Shown here: piece by piece, positions 668 to 29,859 of the stretch
Layout: each line of letters begins with the position of its first letter
Position numbering within the stretch: position 1 is the stretch's first letter
Source: Escherichia coli
Lineage (GTDB): Bacteria; Pseudomonadota; Gammaproteobacteria; Enterobacterales; Enterobacteriaceae
DNA length: 64,000 bases
Strand: one strand, 5' to 3'
NCBI RefSeq assembly: GCF_050920415.1
Contig: NZ_CP169309.1
Notes under the pieces: generated by a model
Databases searched by the model: none
Seen by the model: the letters and a program-made list of their open reading frames with translations, nothing else
What the model was told of the DNA's origin: nothing
Program-made: the position numbers and the translations under genes

Positions 668-1819
668 ATGGCAGCTTCAACCTTTTTTATTCCTTCCGTG
701 AATGTTATCGGCGCTGATTCATTGAATGATGCAATGAATATGATGGCAGATTATGGATTTACCCGTACCTTAATTGTCACTGACAATATGTTAACGAAAT
801 TGGGTATGGCGGGCGATGTGCAAAAAGCACTGGAAGAGCGCAATATTTTTAGCGTTATTTATGATGGCACCCAGCCTAACCCAACCACGGAAAACGTCGC
901 CGCAGGTTTGAAATTACTTAAAGAAAATAATTGCGATAGCGTAATATCCCTGGGCGGTGGTTCTCCGCACGACTGTGCAAAAGGTATTGCGCTGGTTGCA
1001 GCCAACGGCGGTGACATCCGCGATTATGAAGGCGTTGACCGCTCTGCAAAACCGCAGTTGCCGATGATCGCCATCAACACCACTGCGGGTACTGCATCAG
1101 AAATGACTCGTTTCTGCATCATCACCGACGAAGCTCGTCACATCAAAATGGCGATTGTTGATAAGCACGTGACTCCGCTGCTTTCTGTCAATGACTCCTC
1201 GCTGATGATCGGTATGCCGAAGTCACTGACCGCTGCAACGGGTATGGATGCCTTAACGCACGCTATCGAAGCGTATGTGTCTATTGCCGCCACGCCGATC
1301 ACCGACGCTTGCGCACTGAAAGCGGTGACCATGATTGCCGAAAACCTGCCGTTAGCCGTTGAAGATGGCAGCAATGCTAAAGCGCGTGAAGCAATGGCTT
1401 ACGCTCAGTTCCTCGCGGGTATGGCGTTCAACAACGCATCTCTGGGTTATGTTCATGCGATGGCGCACCAGCTGGGCGGTTTCTACAACCTGCCGCACGG
1501 TGTATGTAACGCCGTTCTGCTGCCGCATGTTCAGGTATTCAACAGCAAAGTCGCTGCTGCGCGTCTGCGTGACTGCGCTGCTGCGATGGGTGTTAACGTG
1601 ACAGGTAAAAATGACGCAGAAGGTGCAGAAGCCTGCATCAATGCCATCCGTGAACTGGCGAAGAAAGTGAATATCCCGGCAGGCTTGCGTGACCTGAACG
1701 TGAAAGAAGAAGATTTCGCGGTACTGGCGACCAATGCCCTGAAAGATGCCTGCGGCTTTACTAACCCGATTCAGGCAACTCACGAAGAAATTGTGGCGAT
1801 TTATCGCGCGGCGATGTAA
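668..1819 (+). CDS. yiaY: Iron-containing (group III) alcohol dehydrogenase
   Basis: 383-aa ORF with Fe-ADH-type glycine-rich and His-rich motifs ([16 protein letters not shown]); RBS AGGAG upstream; synteny selB-yiaY-aldB. Confidence 0.9.
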
Positions 1820-1832
1820 TCATCATTCCCAC

Positions 1833-1862
1833 AATGGCTGGCTAATTGTCAGCCATTTTTTC
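1833..1862 (+). terminator. Rho-independent terminator of yiaY (hairpin aatggctg..cagccatt followed by T-run)
   Basis: Inverted repeat plus T tract directly after the yiaY stop codon. Confidence 0.5.
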
Positions 1863-2019
1863 AACTCTCTCAAAATTTGCGATTTTTGAGAGAGTTTTAG
1901 TTATCTCTGTAATCCTTGCCCGTAAATTCGTGATAGCCGTCGTAAAGCTATCACCAGCTGGCGAAGATTTCGCCAGTCACGTCTACCCTTGTTATACCTC
2001 ACACCGCAAGGAGACGATC

Positions 2020-3558
2020 ATGACCAATAATCCCCCTTCAGCACAGATTAAGCCCGGCGAGTATGGTTTCCCCCTCAAGTTAAAAGCCCGCTACGACAAC
2101 TTTATTGGCGGCGAATGGGTAGCCCCTGCCGACGGCGAGTATTACCAGAACCTGACGCCGGTGACCGGGCAGCTACTGTGCGAAGTGGCGTCTTCGGGCA
2201 AACGAGACATCGATCTGGCGCTGGATGCTGCGCATAAAGTGAAAGATAAATGGGCGCATACTTCGGTGCAGGATCGCGCGGCGATTCTGTTTAAGATTGC
2301 CGATCGAATGGAGCAGAACCTCGAACTTTTAGCGACGGCTGAAACCTGGGATAACGGCAAACCCATTCGCGAAACCAGTGCTGCTGATGTACCGCTGGCG
2401 ATTGACCACTTCCGCTATTTCGCCTCGTGTATTCGGGCGCAGGAAGGCGGTATTAGCGAAGTGGATAGCGAAACCGTGGCTTATCACTTCCACGAACCGT
2501 TAGGCGTGGTGGGGCAGATTATCCCGTGGAACTTCCCGCTGTTGATGGCGAGCTGGAAAATGGCTCCCGCGCTGGCGGCGGGCAACTGTGTGGTGCTGAA
2601 ACCCGCACGTCTTACCCCGCTTTCTGTACTGCTGCTAATGGAAATCGTTGGTGATTTACTGCCGCCGGGCGTGGTGAACGTGGTTAACGGCGCTGGTGGG
2701 GAAATTGGCGAATATCTGGCGACCTCGAAACGCATCGCCAAAGTGGCGTTTACCGGCTCAACGGAAGTGGGCCAACAAATTATGCAGTACGCCACGCAAA
2801 ATATTATTCCGGTAACCCTGGAACTGGGCGGCAAGTCGCCAAATATCTTCTTTGCTGATGTGATGGATGAAGAAGATGCCTTTTTCGATAAAGCGCTGGA
2901 AGGCTTTGCACTGTTTGCTTTTAACCAGGGCGAAGTTTGCACCTGTCCAAGTCGTGCCTTAGTGCAGGAGTCAATCTACGAACGCTTTATGGAGCGCGCC
3001 ATCCGCCGTGTCGAAAGCATTCGCAGCGGTAACCCGCTCGATAGCGTGACGCAAATGGGGGCGCAGGTTTCTCACGGGCAACTGGAAACCATCCTCAATT
3101 ACATTGATATCGGTAAAAAAGAGGGTGCTGACGTGCTCACCGGTGGGCGGCGCAAGCTGCTGGAAGGCGAACTGAAAGACGGCTACTACCTCGAACCGAC
3201 GATTCTGTTTGGTCAGAATAATATGCGCGTGTTCCAGGAAGAAATTTTTGGTCCGGTGCTGGCGGTAACCACCTTCAAAACGATGGATGAGGCGCTGGAG
3301 CTGGCGAACGACACGCAATATGGCCTGGGGGCTGGTGTCTGGAGCCGCAACGGTAATCTGGCCTATAAGATGGGGCGCGGTATTCAGGCAGGGCGCGTGT
3401 GGACCAACTGTTATCACGCTTACCCGGCACATGCGGCGTTTGGCGGCTACAAACAATCAGGTATCGGCCGTGAAACCCACAAGATGATGCTGGAGCATTA
3501 CCAGCAAACCAAGTGCCTGCTGGTGAGCTACTCAGATAAACCGTTGGGGCTGTTCTGA
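2020..3558 (+). CDS. aldB: Aldehyde dehydrogenase B
   Basis: 512-aa product starting MTNNPPSAQ with RBS AGGAGA upstream; aldehyde dehydrogenase motifs; tool ORF 1846..3558 carries an upstream in-frame extension. Confidence 0.9.
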
Positions 3559-3835: not shown

Positions 3836-4021
3836 GTGAAAAGTGCAGACGTGATCGCCATCCTGAAGCAGCATGGCTGGGAACATATTCGAACCCGTGG
3901 TAGTCATCATCAGTTCCGCCACCCTGTCCATCCGGGTCTGGTGACGGTTCCGCACCCTAAAAAAGATATTAAGCCCGGTACGCTGGCGCAAATTGGGCGT
4001 CAGGCTGGTTTAACATTTTAA
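3836..4021 (+). CDS. HicA-family (YcfA-like) toxin-like small protein, type II toxin-antitoxin
   Basis: 61-aa ORF, GTG start, with GW..R.RGSHH.F.HP...TVPHP.KD...GTL..I..QAGL pattern typical of HicA; TATAAT at 3813-3818 upstream; immediately followed by a HicB-like ORF. Confidence 0.7.
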   Translation: MKSADVIAILKQHGWEHIRTRGSHHQFRHPVHPGLVTVPHPKKDIKPGTLAQIGRQAGLTF

Positions 4022-4037
4022 AATTTCAGGAGGCAAT

Positions 4038-4448
4038 ATGTTTTATCCCGCCTATATCCACAGTGATCCTGACGGCAGCGCCAGCGGTTTTTTCCCTGAT
4101 GTTCCAGGCTGTTATTTTGCTGGTGATACGCTGGACAACGCTTTCCAGGATGCGCGAAGTGCACTGGTCGCGCACTTCGAAACCTTATGCGAGATGAATG
4201 AAGAGTTGCCGCTTCCAGGCTCTGTGGAAACACATCTGGTCCAGCGTGCGCAGGACTTTATTGGCGGGCAATGGTTGCTGGTGGATATCAATATGAATCA
4301 GTTCGAAGGTCGGGCTGAACGTATCAATATTACGATGCCGAAAAGATTACTGAACAAGATTGATACCTACGTGCGCAATAACCCAGACTACGCCAACAGA
4401 AGTGCGTTTCTGGCGGAAGCTGCCCGGCGTGTATTGCCGGGCGTTTAA
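4038..4448 (+). CDS. HicB-family antitoxin-like protein with C-terminal ribbon-helix-helix DNA-binding region
   Basis: 136-aa ORF 16 nt after the HicA-like gene, RBS AGGAGG; C-terminal segment ITMPKRLLNKID...RSAFLAEAARRVL resembles an RHH motif. Confidence 0.7.
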   Translation: MFYPAYIHSDPDGSASGFFPDVPGCYFAGDTLDNAFQDARSALVAHFETLCEMNEELPLPGSVETHLVQRAQDFIGGQWLLVDINMNQFEGRAERINITMPKRLLNKIDTYVRNNPDYANRSAFLAEAARRVLPGV

Positions 4449-4780
4449 TCTCGCGTTTCGATGGTGAGCGGGCGGACCAGGCTGTACAGCCACAGACCAA
4501 AACAAGCGATGGTGCCAATCACCACGGTGAGGAACACACTGACTGACAGGCCTGCAAGCAATCCCGCAGGCAGGGCCAGCAGGCCGTGGATCACGGTGTC
4601 GTTCCATCTCACCTGATCGTAGCCAAACATGCCTAAAACGCCGCAAACCAGACCGTAAATCACCATTGGTGTTCCGAGGCCAATCAGCAATAAACGGTAG
4701 ATAATTGAAGGTTTAATACGCTTTATCTGTACTGTGGATGTTTTACTGGGGTTATTCATTAGTTTGGTCAATAGTTCCAT
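4445..4780 (-). CDS. Hypothetical small inner-membrane protein (about 111 aa, 2-3 predicted TM segments)
   Basis: ORF with long hydrophobic stretches; start uncertain (ATG at 4780 or 4828); no clear RBS. Confidence 0.35.
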   Translation of the reverse strand: MELLTKLMNNPSKTSTVQIKRIKPSIIYRLLLIGLGTPMVIYGLVCGVLGMFGYDQVRWNDTVIHGLLALPAGLLAGLSVSVFLTVVIGTIACFGLWLYSLVRPLTIETRD

Positions 4781-4941
4781 TATTTCAATATGATAAACCT
4801 CGACCTGTTGAAAAGCCAGGTAGCACACTTCAGAAAGTATATAAAAAACAATATGTCGTTATATAAATAAGGAAATTGCACTGCATCATGGCATTTCATA
4901 ATATGCGTTAATTGTTCTTTTTTATATTCTCTGAGGGAAAT

Positions 4942-5265
4942 ATGTTCCTGGACTATTTTGCACTGGGAGTGCTTATTTTTGTATTTCTGGTGATATTCTA
5001 TGGGATTATTATTTTACATGATATTCCCTACCTGATTGCTAAAAAACGTAATCATCCTCATGCCGACGCCATTCATGTTGCTGGTTGGGTGAGTCTTTTT
5101 ACGCTGCATGTTATCTGGCCATTTTTGTGGATTTGGGCCACGCTTTACCACCCGGAGCGGGGATGGGGAATGCAAAACCATGACTCCTCCGTTGTGCAAC
5201 TACAACAGCGTATTGCCGGGCTGGAGAAACAGCTCGCCGACATCAAATCCTCTTCTGCCGAGTAA
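4942..5265 (+). CDS. yiaW: DUF3302-family inner membrane protein
   Basis: 107-aa hydrophobic protein immediately upstream of the HlyD-family yiaV, arrangement as in K-12 yiaWV. Confidence 0.8.
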
Positions 5266-16526: not shown

Positions 16527-17513
16527 TTATTGCACCTCATCCACGGCTTTCAGCAGTTCATCGCCCTGCGGAACATCTTTTACAAACATGTCGCGGACCT
16601 GAGTACCCAGTACGTCGCTAAAGGCTTTGCGATCAAGTTCGGTGATGACTTCCACGCCAGCGTCTTTCATGCCGTCGATGATTTTTTGCTGATTTTCGGC
16701 GACCAATTTGCGCTGGTAATTACCCGCTTCTTGCGCAGATGAAATTAGCGCTTGCTGGAACTCCGGGCTTAAGCCATCAAACTTCGCTTTGTTGATCACC
16801 ACCAGAAGTGGGGAATAGGCATGGTGCGTCAGAGAAAGGTACTTCTGCACTTCATAAAATTTGGCTGACCAGACGACGTTGATCGGGTGTTCCTAAGCGT
16901 CGATAGTGCGCGTTTCCAGCCCGGTATAGACTTCGGCAAATGGCATCGGAATCGGGTTAGCGCCAAAGACTTTGAATGCGGCGATATTCATCGGGCTATT
17001 GTTGGTGCGTATTTTCAGCCCTTTCAGGTCGGCAGGTGTTTTAACTGGCTGGCGTGAGTTGGTGACATCGCGCCAGCCGTTTTCCCAGTAGGCCAGTACT
17101 TTCAGTCCCTTACCTTCAAGGGAGGCCTTCAGTTCATCGCCGACTTTGCCGTCGAGTGTTTTATGCGCGTGGGCGGTATCGCGGAACAGGAAAGGAACAT
17201 CAAGCAGGTTCATCACAGGTGATAATCCGGCAAAGTTATTCGAGCCAGACATCTCCATATCAATAGTGCCGCCACGCACGCCGCTGATCATCGCTTGTGC
17301 GTTGCCGAGAGTACTGTCCGGGAACAGTTTTAATTTCAGCTCGCCTTTGGTTCTCTCCTGTAATAATTCATTAAATTTTTTCGCTGCAATATGTTGTGAG
17401 TCGGTTTGTGAGGTTTCATAACCGAAACGTAATGATTGTGCCGCCAGCGAAGACGTACTGAATGCAGCGAGGCCAGCAATGAATAATGCGTAGGTTACAG
17501 AGCGTAATTTCAT
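16527..17513 (-). pseudogene. yiaO: TRAP transporter periplasmic solute-binding protein with an in-frame amber (TAG) stop at 16893-16895
   Basis: Two ORFs (206 aa and 107 aa) lie in the same frame, separated only by a TAG; translation across it reads ..RTIDA*EHPINVVWSAKFYEVQKY.., so a single nonsense substitution rather than a frameshift. Confidence 0.75.
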
Positions 17514-22604: not shown

Positions 22605-23912
<1,308 letters not shown>

Positions 23913-25348: not shown

Positions 25349-27379
25349 TTACTGTTGCCCCGCCCAGACGACCAGCACTTTATCGTCGTCATGCTCACGA
25401 ACAAAGCCGTAGCCCTGCTTCAGCGAAAGTGTCGTTTGTTTGCCCGCGCCAATTGCGGGATGGCGGGCGCGGAACTGGCTGATTTTCTGCCAGTGCGCGA
25501 CGCTAGCGGCAGATTTACCGCTAACATCCTGCCAGTTCATATCCGAACGCGTGCCTTGCAGCGGATCAGAACCGGTAGGACCGAACGGACGAGAGGATTC
25601 ATCACCATAAAAGATTTGTACTGCACCTGGCGCTAATAACAATAACTCTGCTGCTTTGTCGCCCCCTTCACGAAACAAACGAGTATCATGCGACGAAAGA
25701 TAGCTCAACACGTTGAAATCCTGCAATTTCTCTGCCATTTGCTGCCAGGTCGTATCCATCTGCGCCAGACAATCGACTGCTTTAGCCGCCTGCTCCTGAT
25801 AATCGAAATTGATCATCGCATCGAAGCCGTGGCGATAGTAGTCACTTTGCATCACGCCGTGGCCCCAGGCTTCACCGGTCATCCAGAACGGTTTGTCATC
25901 TAACGCTTTATCGGGATTCGCTTTTTTCCATTCGACAAGCGCGGCGCTGGCTTCGGTTTTCAGTTGCTGCCAGGCGGGCAACTCAACATGCTTGGCGGTA
26001 TCGACCCGAAAACCATCAATTCCGTAGTCACGGACCCACTGGCTTAACCAATGGGTTAAGTAATCTCGAGGGGTAAAGCCGTCAATGGCTTTAGCGTGGG
26101 TATCCGTTTTGTTGTTATAGAACACTGGCAGGCCAGAAGCGGTAGTTGATTCGGTTTTGATATCCGGTAAAAAGGCCAGCGACATGGTGAGATCGTCAAA
26201 TCCAGGATTGTCGTAGTCGCCGATATCCGTTCTGATCCAGTTTTTTCCCCACCATTTATCCCAGCCTGTTTTGTCGCTGAAATTAATGTAATCGTTAAAG
26301 CTATGCCAGGTTTGTCCGGCGGCGGGCTTCCAGTCGCTCCAACGGTCACCTAACGTTTTTTTCACTTCGTCACCAGAAAGATATAACGCGCCAAACTGAT
26401 ACTCCTGCATATCCGCCAGTGTGGCATAGCCGGTGTGGTTCATCACGACATCAAAGAGAATACGAATACCGCGCTGATGCGCGCTATCAACCAGCGTCCG
26501 TAGATCGGCTTCGCTGCCCATATTGGCATCAAGATTCGTCCAGTCCTGGGTGTAATAACCGTGGTAGGCATAATGCGGGAAATCGCCTTTTGTACCGCCA
26601 CCGACCCAGCCGTGAATTTGCTCAAATGGGGCACTTATCCATAAAGCATTGACGCCCAGCTGCTGGAGGTAATCCAGTTTGTTGGTCAGGCCGCGTAAAT
26701 CGCCGCCGTGAAAAGTGCCAATTTCTGCCATACCGTCTTTATGACGTCCGTAACTCTGGTCATTACTGGGATCGCCGTTTTCGAAACGATCTGTCAGCAC
26801 GAAGTAAACCGTGGCGTTATGCCAGTCGAAAGGGGCGGATGTGTCAGTTTCTGCCCGTTCCAGCAGGAGTAAACCGTTGCTGGTGGCAGCGGGTTGTAAC
26901 GTTATTTGACCGTTCTTCACTATCGCAATTTGCTGGCTGTAATAATCCCGGACTGCGGCTCCCTCCGGAAAAGTGGCGCTGACATCCAGTGTGAGCGGTA
27001 ATCCATCCCATTTCGGGCATTCACGGACCAGGCTTGCTACCGGTTCGACGGTGTTCTGGATGGAAATCATCAATGTTGGTGTACCGGAGCGGGTGTCTAG
27101 TTGCAGCGTATATTCGCCGTCCCTGAACAATCGCCATTGAGGTGGCGTGTTGCTACAAGGTTGCAGGGAAAGCATCTGATTGAGTTTTATCGCATCCGCA
27201 GGCTGCCAGCACTGTTGGTCAAAATTTAGCGTTAGTGGACGCGTACCTTTGGGCAACTGCGCGTGGCTGACAAATGTTCCCGTTCCCTGTTCGCTAAAGG
27301 CAGGGAACCCCGGAGAAGTCCAGCTGGCGGCAACGGCGAAGCCAGGAAGGAGTGTCAGAAAACAGGCGGCGAGTTTCAT
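25349..27379 (-). CDS. malS: Periplasmic alpha-amylase
   Basis: 676-aa GH13 enzyme with signal peptide; synteny. Confidence 0.9.
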   Translation of the reverse strand: MKLAACFLTLLPGFAVAASWTSPGFPAFSEQGTGTFVSHAQLPKGTRPLTLNFDQQCWQPADAIKLNQMLSLQPCSNTPPQWRLFRDGEYTLQLDTRSGTPTLMISIQNTVEPVASLVRECPKWDGLPLTLDVSATFPEGAAVRDYYSQQIAIVKNGQITLQPAATSNGLLLLERAETDTSAPFDWHNATVYFVLTDRFENGDPSNDQSYGRHKDGMAEIGTFHGGDLRGLTNKLDYLQQLGVNALWISAPFEQIHGWVGGGTKGDFPHYAYHGYYTQDWTNLDANMGSEADLRTLVDSAHQRGIRILFDVVMNHTGYATLADMQEYQFGALYLSGDEVKKTLGDRWSDWKPAAGQTWHSFNDYINFSDKTGWDKWWGKNWIRTDIGDYDNPGFDDLTMSLAFLPDIKTESTTASGLPVFYNNKTDTHAKAIDGFTPRDYLTHWLSQWVRDYGIDGFRVDTAKHVELPAWQQLKTEASAALVEWKKANPDKALDDKPFWMTGEAWGHGVMQSDYYRHGFDAMINFDYQEQAAKAVDCLAQMDTTWQQMAEKLQDFNVLSYLSSHDTRLFREGGDKAAELLLLAPGAVQIFYGDESSRPFGPTGSDPLQGTRSDMNWQDVSGKSAASVAHWQKISQFRARHPAIGAGKQTTLSLKQGYGFVREHDDDKVLVVWAGQQ

Positions 27380-27766
27380 GGCGGATGAGTCCTTATTGCT
27401 GCGATTTCAGACAGTTTGCCAGCGATAAGCCAGACAAAACTCATCCCTGAGCGGTAAGTCCACAGGATGAGAAGCAAGGGTGAGCGATCGCGCGCAAAAA
27501 ACGGCCGAATTTTGCGATAAACCCCACATTTTCTGCGATTTAGCGCCAATCTGAATCGTTAACACGTGACATAGTTTCAGATTTGGACTATTCCTTGGGG
27601 TGCTCTTGACGGCTATTTTTGATATGATTTGAGATTCAACTCTCAAATTTGTGAAAAATATAAGGTGTTGGAATGTAGACTGGCCCCCTGAATCTCCAGA
27701 CAACCAGTATCACTTAAATAAGTGATAGTCTTAATACTAGTTTTTAGACTAGTCATTGGAGAACAG

Positions 27767-28132
27767 ATGATTGATGTCTTAGGGCCGGAGAAACGCAGAC
27801 GGCGTACCACACAGGAAAAGATCGCAATTGTTCAGCAGAGCTTTGAACCGGGGATGACGGTCTCCCTCGTTGCCCGGCAACATGGTGTAGCAGCCAGCCA
27901 GTTATTTCTCTGGCGTAAGCAATACCAGGAAGGAAGTCTTACTGCTGTCGCCGCCGGAGAACAGGTTGTTCCTGCCTCTGAACTTGCTGCCGCCATGAAG
28001 CAGATTAAAGAACTCCAGCGCCTGCTCGGCAAGAAAACGATGGAAAATGAACTCCTCAAAGAAGCCGTTGAATATGGACGGGCAAAAAAGTGGATAGCGC
28101 ACGCGCCCTTATTGCCCGGGGATGGGGAGTAA
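27767..28132 (+). CDS. insC: IS2 OrfA (InsC), HTH DNA-binding protein
   Basis: 121-aa product starting [18 protein letters not shown]; leucine-zipper/HTH IS3-family OrfA. Confidence 0.85.
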
Positions 28133-28995
28133 GCTTAGTCAGCCGTTGTCTCCGGGTGTCGCGTGCGCAGTTGCACGTCATTCTCAGACGAACCGATGAC
28201 TGGATGGATGGCCGCCGCAGTCGTCACACTGATGATACGGATGTGCTTCTCCGTATACACCATGTTATCGGAGAGCTGCCCACGTATGGTTATCGTCGGG
28301 TATGGGCGCTGCTTCGCAGACAGGCAGAACTTGATGGTATGCCTGCGATCAATGCCAAACGTGTTTACCGGATCATGCGCCAGAATGCGCTGTTGCTTGA
28401 GCGAAAACCTGCTGTACCGCCATCGAAACGGGCACATACAGGCAGAGTGGCCGTGAAAGAAAGCAATCAGCGATGGTGCTCTGACGGGTTCGAGTTCTGC
28501 TGTGATAACGGAGAGAGACTGCGTGTCACGTTCGCGCTGGACTGCTGTGATCGTGAGGCACTGCACTGGGCGGTGACTACTGGCGGCTTCAACAGTGAAA
28601 CAGTACAGGACGTCATGCTGGGAGCGGTGGAACGCCGCTTCGGCAACGATCTTCCGTCGTCTCCAGTGGAGTGGCTGACGGATAATGGTTCATGCTACCG
28701 GGCTAATGAAACACGCCAGTTCGCCCGGATGTTGGGACTTGAACCGAAGAACACGGCGGTGCGGAGTCCGGAGAGTAACGGAATAGCAGAGAGCTTCGTG
28801 AAAACGATAAAGCGTGACTACATCAGTATCATGCCCAAACCAGACGGGTTAACGGCAGCAAAGAACCTTGCAGAGGCGTTCGAGCATTATAACGAATGGC
28901 ATCCGCATAGTGCGCTGGGTTATCGCTCGCCACGGGAATATCTGCGGCAGCGGGCTTGTAATGGGTTAAGTGATAACAGATGTCTGGAAATATAG
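28090..28995 (+). CDS. insD: IS2 OrfB (InsD), DDE transposase catalytic domain
   Basis: 301-aa ORF overlapping OrfA in the -1 frame; rve integrase-type catalytic core. Confidence 0.85.
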
Positions 28996-29034
28996 GGGCA
29001 AATCCAGAATGATTAAATCCGACCAGGAGACCTG

Positions 29035-29859
29035 ATGATTTTGACTCCCATACGACGATATGGGGCGATGATTCTTATGTTACTCACTCTGGTGTTTTCG
29101 AGTGAGGTGTTAGCGAAGACGCACACAACAACAGCGAGTCAAAAGTCCCACTTAACTAAAGCTAGTAATAAACAGGTAAGCAGTAAACAAGAGTATTCTC
29201 GCAATAGTGCAAAGAGTAGTTCACTTCCTGATTTGCGAAAATACCCTTCCGGAACACCAAGGAAAAAAGCGTTTCTCCGGACCGTAATGCCTTACATTAC
29301 CAGCCAAAATGCGGCCATTACTGCGGAACGTAACTGGCTCATTTCAAAACAGTATCAGGGCCAATGGTCACCTGCTGAGCGTGCGCGTCTGAAAGACATC
29401 GCCAAACGCTACAAGGTGAAGTGGTCCGGTAATACGCGAAAAATCCCGTGGAATACCTTGCTTGAACGCGTAGACATTATTCCTACCAGTATGGTGGCGA
29501 CGATGGCTGCAGCAGAAAGCGGTTGGGGAACGTCGAAGCTGGCGCGTAGCAACAACAACCTATTCGGCATGAAGTGCATGAAAGGACGTTGTACCAATGC
29601 GCCGGGTAAAGTGAAGGGGTACTCACAGTTCAGTTCTGTCAAAGAATCGGTGAGCGCCTATGTCACTAACCTGAATACTCACCCGGCTTACTCTTCGTTC
29701 CGTAAATCGCGTGCACAGCTGCGTAAAGCGGATCAGGAAGTGACTGCCACAGCGATGATTCACAAGCTGAAGGGCTACTCGACCAAAGGGAAGAGTTATA
29801 ACAACTACCTGTTCGCAATGTACCAGGATAACCAACGGTTAATCGCGGCGCATATGTAA
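29035..29859 (+). CDS. bax: Bax protein (putative glucosaminidase/FlgJ-like domain)
   Basis: 274-aa ORF with signal peptide; synteny between malS and xylR; the IS2 copy ends 28 bp upstream of its ATG. Confidence 0.85.
   Translation: MILTPIRRYGAMILMLLTLVFSSEVLAKTHTTTASQKSHLTKASNKQVSSKQEYSRNSAKSSSLPDLRKYPSGTPRKKAFLRTVMPYITSQNAAITAERNWLISKQYQGQWSPAERARLKDIAKRYKVKWSGNTRKIPWNTLLERVDIIPTSMVATMAAAESGWGTSKLARSNNNLFGMKCMKGRCTNAPGKVKGYSQFSSVKESVSAYVTNLNTHPAYSSFRKSRAQLRKADQEVTATAMIHKLKGYSTKGKSYNNYLFAMYQDNQRLIAAHM

Follow-up and report, generated by a model that had tools for sequence, protein, structure and literature searches.

An IS2 element stands between the divergent genes malS and bax in a stretch of Escherichia coli DNA of 64,000 nucleotides (contig NZ_CP169309.1; hereafter the window, whose coordinates are used throughout). 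Its position raises the question of how and when it arrived there, and of what has become of the signals that precede bax. An earlier note, made from the letters alone, had described a complete IS2 that inserted cleanly and probably recently 28 bp upstream of bax, flanked by a 5-bp GAATG duplication, and had proposed that bax expression is likely altered as a consequence. We examined the structure of the element, its target site in other E. coli genomes, the leader region into which it has inserted and the candidate promoters at its junction with bax.

Structure of the IS2 element

IS2, a member of the IS3 family, uses copy-out/paste-in transposition via a minicircle. The element of the window is 1331 bp long and lies on the plus strand (27676-29006). 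It starts with TAGACTGGCCCCC... at 27676 and ends with ...GGGGCAAATCCA at 29006, with the left inverted repeat (IRL) on the malS side and the right one (IRR) beside bax. It is present as a single copy, and no further IS2 ends were found in the 64-kb window.

The terminal repeats of IS2 are imperfect and have been defined as 42 bp for IRL and 41 bp for IRR (PMC3299598, PMC3219604). The IRL of the window (27676-27717, plus strand, starting with TAGACT), delimited by comparison with the published IRL (PMC3219604) and with K-12, matches the published sequence at 41 of 42 bases. The only mismatch is an A to G change at position 32 (window 27707). The same G is carried by the 100%-identical IS2 copies of strain MFDS1022581, the closest relative, so the variant is evidently compatible with transposition. 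The IRR (28966-29006, plus strand) is identical to the published one, which contains the outward -35 on which the promoter of the minicircle junction relies (PMC3219604).

Both reading frames were assigned with IS2-specific NCBIfam models. orfA (27767-28132, plus strand) encodes the 121-aa InsC, the IS2 repressor TnpA, which scored 276 bits with NF006928 (curated cut-off 229) over residues 1-121 of 121. orfB (28090-28995, plus strand), in the -1 frame with respect to orfA, encodes the 301-aa InsD, the catalytic part of the transposase, which scored 728 bits with NF006918 (curated cut-off 597) over residues 1-301 of 301. The A6G motif of the programmed -1 frameshift site (PMC3219604) is located at 28084-28090 (plus strand), and a -1 fusion at this site results in a 409-aa OrfAB with zero internal stops. 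Length, inverted repeats, family models and fusion protein all agree with the complete IS2, with intact ends and the usual orfA/orfB -1 arrangement, that had been proposed. By every defining feature that can be tested on sequence, the element is IS2. Both the element and its mechanism are already known and the event is a textbook transposition; only the insertion site is new.

Target-site duplication and the empty site

The pentamer GAATG is found on the plus strand immediately to the left (27671-27675) and immediately to the right (29007-29011) of the element. Identity between the two flanks ends at exactly 5 bp, the sixth base being different, and two pentamers are expected to match by chance in about 1 case in 1024. 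We constructed an empty-site query of 600 bp, in which both flanks are joined by a single GAATG, and searched for it in 5426 complete E. coli genomes. At least 80% of its length was present in 5420 of these, K-12 among them, where the site reads ...aaggtgttggaatgattaaatcc... with one GAATG. The empty site was 100% identical and ungapped in MFDS1022581 and in N96. Since a single GAATG is present in native genomes, such as those of K-12 and of the closest relative, we regard the pair as a true target-site duplication and not as a chance repeat. The point on which the duplication could have failed, namely that the pentamers might not derive from one native GAATG, was thus checked against other genomes, with a result in favour of the duplication.

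Queries of 600 bp across the left junction and across the right junction each matched 0 of the 5426 complete genomes, and the 30-nt right junction GGGGCAAATCCAGAATGATTAAATCCGACC was not found in metagenome contigs or in GTDB representative genomes by exact-match scans. The K-12 site is empty, in agreement with the earlier note. An ancestral insertion followed by precise excision elsewhere was ruled out, as 5420 diverse genomes have the empty site.

Age of the insertion and relation to MFDS1022581

The 64-kb window is collinear with MFDS1022581 throughout, with 10 SNPs and 2 one-base gaps (99.98% identity), and IS2 is the sole structural difference between the two. Since this near-clonal relative carries the empty site, the insertion postdates the split from MFDS1022581. 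Both the chromosome (NZ_CP169399.1) and the 242-kb plasmid (NZ_CP169400.1) of MFDS1022581 contain IS2 copies with 100% identity to the element. In total, 20 IS2 matches lie on this chromosome and 11 on the plasmid, against a median of 4 per genome and a highest value of 41. This identity, combined with that of the empty site in the relative, bears out the view of a clean and recent transposition. As to the competence of the element for transposition, the presence of identical copies at many sites of MFDS1022581 and of OrfA and OrfB identical to those of K-12 is indirect evidence. The high number of IS2 matches in MFDS1022581 suggests that IS2 expansion is ongoing in this lineage.

In a genome with about 30 identical IS2 copies, one may ask whether an IS2 repeat has been misplaced at malS-bax by the assembly. 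Many identical copies do exist in the lineage, and the two one-base gaps that distinguish the IS621 copy of the window from that of the relative may be assembly indels. Against this, both flanks come from one locus, and joining them restores the native sequence perfectly. Furthermore, the duplication is exact and has the 5-bp length typical of IS2, and neither a repeat collapse nor a chimeric join would generate a target-site duplication. We therefore consider a misplaced repeat extremely unlikely. As judged by the comparison with the collinear MFDS1022581, from which the window differs structurally by IS2 only, this is a genuine insertion, clean and of recent date. It documents current IS2 activity in an IS2-rich lineage and provides a clean marker to distinguish this strain from the near-identical MFDS1022581.

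IS-rich genomes are typical of Shigella. A Shigella origin is unnecessary here, the window being collinear with, and 99.98% identical to, an E. coli food isolate (MFDS1022581).

Two further loci of the window were compared with MFDS1022581. The IS621 copy (22715-23695), located between ysaA and avtA, differs from the intact 981-bp transposase gene of this strain at 22860, 22861, 22953 and 23089 (two SNPs and two one-base gaps), and its longest ORF in the window is of only 215 aa (23046-23693, minus strand). It is either a frameshifted dead copy or the product of assembly indel errors. yiaO, a gene for a TRAP transporter substrate-binding protein, carries an internal stop in MFDS1022581, where it has a pseudogene annotation (locus L001, 9150-10136). 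The window yiaO (~16527-17513) presumably shares this stop, because no differences between the window and MFDS1022581 are listed in that interval.

The insertion point in the baxL-bax leader

bax (29035-29859, plus strand) is intact and encodes a protein of 274 aa that matches NF007681 over its full length with 564 bits. We take it to be a poorly characterised putative peptidoglycan glucosaminidase. A literature search on bax, malS and xylR returned nothing on bax function, phenotype or promoter. The bax Shine-Dalgarno sequence, AGGAG, is located at 29025-29029, and 28 nt (29007-29034) lie between the end of IS2 and the bax ATG at 29035, the same distance as in the earlier note. Gene coordinates and the position of IRR likewise agree with an insertion between the divergent genes malS and bax whose right end faces bax.

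Between IS2 and bax lies baxL (29009-29035, plus strand), assigned from the K-12 gene b4794, the translation and the K-12 sequence. This leader ORF of 27 nt (8 codons, MIKSDQET*) is intact, and its TGA stop overlaps the bax ATG (TGATG). BaxL has been detected as a protein in K-12, and a stop codon put into baxL raises bax-lacZ expression (bioRxiv 10.1101/511675). Translation of baxL in K-12 requires a native transcript that begins upstream of the point where IS2 inserted, which would place IS2 inside the transcribed leader of baxL-bax.

The IS2 integration point is 2 bp 5' of the baxL start codon, between this ATG and a Shine-Dalgarno-like AAGGTG. The right-hand GAATG ends with the ATG of baxL, so that the duplicated target includes the baxL start codon, a point that goes beyond the earlier note. 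The other copy of this ATG remains on the left of IS2 as part of an orphaned baxL start (27662-27678, plus strand): AAGGTG, a 5-nt spacer and ATG are directly followed by TAG, the opening bases of IS2, so that a start and a stop codon are now adjacent. The native AAGGTG (27662-27667) is now 1.3 kb from baxL-bax, and IRR precedes intact baxL and bax. IS2 thus separates baxL from the native promoter region and from its Shine-Dalgarno sequence, leaving the leader ORF without its native upstream signals. As placed by these features, the insertion is not simply upstream of bax; it interrupts the baxL-bax leader, dividing the Shine-Dalgarno sequence of baxL from the ATG.

Taken together, these results are best explained by a recent, strain-specific transposition of IS2 into the baxL-bax leader with duplication of GAATG, a reading to which we assign a probability of about 0.9. 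An active IS2, coming from one of the many identical copies in the lineage, would have entered the baxL-bax transcription unit in its leader, where a staggered 5-bp cut would have duplicated GAATG together with the baxL start codon. The result is a natural allele in which baxL is disconnected from its translation signals and bax is intact. With the empty site of MFDS1022581 it forms an allele pair for the study of baxL and of the upstream control of bax. The added value of the locus lies in a leader dissected at its start codon; on IS2 biology and mechanism it brings nothing new.

A candidate hybrid promoter at the IRR/flank junction

The IS2 junction promoter, in which the -35 of IRR is combined with a -10 of IRL, is described as powerful and as strictly needing a 17-nt spacer (PMC3299598, PMC3219604). 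Using the 17-nt rule quoted in these two studies, we assigned by geometry the hexamers of a possible promoter at the junction between IS2 and bax. The candidate, TGGAAA-17-AATGAT (28985-29013, plus strand), matches the consensus at 8 of 12 positions. Its -35, TGGAAA (28985-28990), is located in IRR and faces bax, and AATGAT (29008-29013), with a 4/6 match to the -10 consensus, is located in the flank.

The promoter prediction over the IS2/bax junction that the earlier note had called for gave no support for a strong hybrid promoter. In a consensus scan of 27300-29200, no promoter-like site reached 9/12 on either strand (shuffled sequences give 1.5), and this also applied to the native bax promoter or transcription start. 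Candidates, including the hybrid site, were obtained in a relaxed hexamer scan, with scores of 7-8/12 only. A terminator scan of the same interval (27300-29200) returned one site, located inside bax on the minus strand, which is no more than in shuffled sequences.

The uninterrupted site was also inspected, after rebuilding the native arrangement from 27649-27675 and 29012-29013. It contains TTGTGA-17-(TGg)AATGAT, a promoter-like sequence with a -10 that shares bases with the baxL start codon (27649-27677 in the native reconstruction). If functional, this native site would produce a bax transcript without baxL. On the left of IS2 the native hexamer becomes AATGTA, and on the right a promoter-like site is rebuilt with the IS2 -35. 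The insertion thus exchanges one mediocre -35 for another, and the extended -10 TG is lost.

A working TGGAAA-17-AATGAT promoter would activate bax by initiating transcription near 29020, a position that falls within baxL, past its ATG. The resulting mRNA would include the bax Shine-Dalgarno sequence without a translatable baxL, and bax would become constitutive and freed from baxL-mediated repression. In line with this proposal, the candidate shares its -35, the 17-nt spacing and the 8/12 score with TGGAAA-17-TAGACT, the only 17-nt candidate in a modelled minicircle junction. The outward -35 of IRR is documented, as is the power of the 17-nt-dependent junction promoter (PMC3219604, PMC3299598). 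IS2 fusion promoters have activated ampC, acrEF and neoR (PMC9330008), and a poor -35 at 17 bp led to a 20-fold increase in the case of ampC. The effect of a baxL stop codon on bax-lacZ (bioRxiv 10.1101/511675) points in the same direction, and the existence of the native TTGTGA-17-(TGg)AATGAT indicates that AATGAT may be a real -10. Nevertheless, the first base of AATGAT is not the T of the -10 consensus, and the insertion removed the extended -10 TG of the native site. The hybrid site falls short of the 9/12 that the scan required, its hexamers were assigned by geometry only, and the IS2 right end was without detectable promoter activity in a reporter context (PMC12095673). Activation of bax by this hybrid promoter is therefore a tentative proposal which we regard, on balance, as unlikely.

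Expected effect on bax and malS

With IS2 transposed into the baxL-bax leader, bax would be freed from its native transcriptional control. Its expression could then come from read-through of the native promoter along the sense strand of the 1.3-kb element, from read-through of a weak IS2 promoter, from a weak IRR/flank hybrid promoter, or from both read-through and the hybrid promoter. Read-through from the IS2 promoter would be possible since no terminator-like site was found after orfB. In a reporter study, the 150 bp of the IS2 right end alone showed no detectable outward promoter, and promoters located more than 150 bp inside an IS3 backbone gave no detectable output (PMC12095673), which argues that read-through is weak. 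We also folded the RNAs of the native leader, of the IS2 read-through and of the putative hybrid-promoter transcript: differences in accessibility of the bax Shine-Dalgarno sequence and AUG were modest and model-dependent. Altered bax expression, as proposed in the earlier note, would be a reasonable claim, and the expected net effect is a reduced or deregulated expression of bax instead of a clean knockout. Most likely, the event is neutral or nearly so.

The divergent neighbour malS (25349-27379, minus strand) should be unaffected: 296 bp separate its ATG from IS2 on the upstream side, and the MalT-box cores, at most about 90 bp from this ATG, are at least 190 bp away from IS2.

Other IS insertions near bax and the question of selection

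The 600-bp empty-site query was interrupted in only three of the 5426 genomes (Trp01, JW-5 and F8492), and no other interruption was observed in the same genome set between window positions 27591 and 29311. The lab strains Trp01 and JW-5 (NZ_CP178240.1) carry the same element as the window, IS2, at the 5' end of bax no more than about 60 bp from the window site, and likewise with a clean 5-bp duplication. In contrast to the window copy, this IS2 is in the opposite orientation and inside the gene, at codon 12-13, where it disrupts the coding sequence; its duplication is ATTCT and it represents an independent event in a laboratory lineage with a genome of K-12 size. The Trp01 copy lies at 3866-5196 of locus L005 (NZ_CP174507.1), and the insertion site is equivalent to ~29067-29071 of the window. 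In this insertion allele PGAP re-calls bax from a downstream ATG. When written in the orientation of the IS, the two IS2 duplications (GAATG here, AGAAT in Trp01/JW-5) have GAAT in common, which may be a coincidence with n=2. The third genome, O157:H7 strain F8492 (NZ_CP038282.1; locus L006, ~1700-3000), has an IS1203, also of the IS3 family, between malS and bax; it lies ~140 bp from the malS ATG, on its upstream side (equivalent to window ~27516).

Three independent IS events, the window insertion included, have thus occurred within a stretch of ~420 bp. This could mean that the window insertion was selected and is not neutral, the bax 5' region being a recurrent IS target and the perturbation of bax being advantageous under some conditions. 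Two other independent insertions of IS3-family elements so close by (the IS2 of Trp01/JW-5 and the IS1203 of F8492) are in line with such a view. However, three lineages per ~5400 genomes represent a very low rate, and the positions, orientations and elements of the three events all differ. Moreover, the 50 bp on the left of the window IS2 are 70% AT, and target preference for an AT-rich flank could account for the pattern without selection. We therefore consider selection of this insertion very unlikely. Occasional IS traffic in an AT-rich region is what these data describe; they make neither a convincing hotspot nor evidence of selection. It also seems quite unlikely that a hybrid promoter bypassing baxL has made this a natural gain-of-expression allele of bax, with the IS hits reflecting selection on bax dosage.

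Comparison with known systems

IS2A of E. coli K-12 MG1655 (NC_000913.3, 381260-382590) is, like the window IS2, 1331 bp long; the two are 99.7% identical and free of indels relative to each other. The OrfA and OrfB proteins, the A6G site, IRR and the 5-bp length of the target duplication are the same in both. The four substitutions comprise the A to G change at IRL position 32 and three changes in orfB, all at third codon positions and synonymous. The location of the window IS2 is unlike any in the 5426 complete genomes.

The arrangement at bax resembles the fusion promoter formed by IS2 at ampC (Jaurin and Normark 1983, cited through PMC9330008). There, IRR likewise faces the downstream gene and the IS2-borne -35 is likewise placed 17 nt from a -10-like hexamer of the flank. 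The ampC fusion promoter was shown by experiment. At bax, the candidate -10, AATGAT, is weaker than a typical functional -10.

Compared with the baxL-bax unit of K-12 (Weaver et al. 2019, bioRxiv 10.1101/511675), the window shows no change in the baxL coding sequence or in the TGATG by which baxL overlaps bax. In contrast, the baxL promoter and Shine-Dalgarno sequence are replaced by the IRR of IS2, which places UAGGGGCAAAUCCAGA before the AUG.
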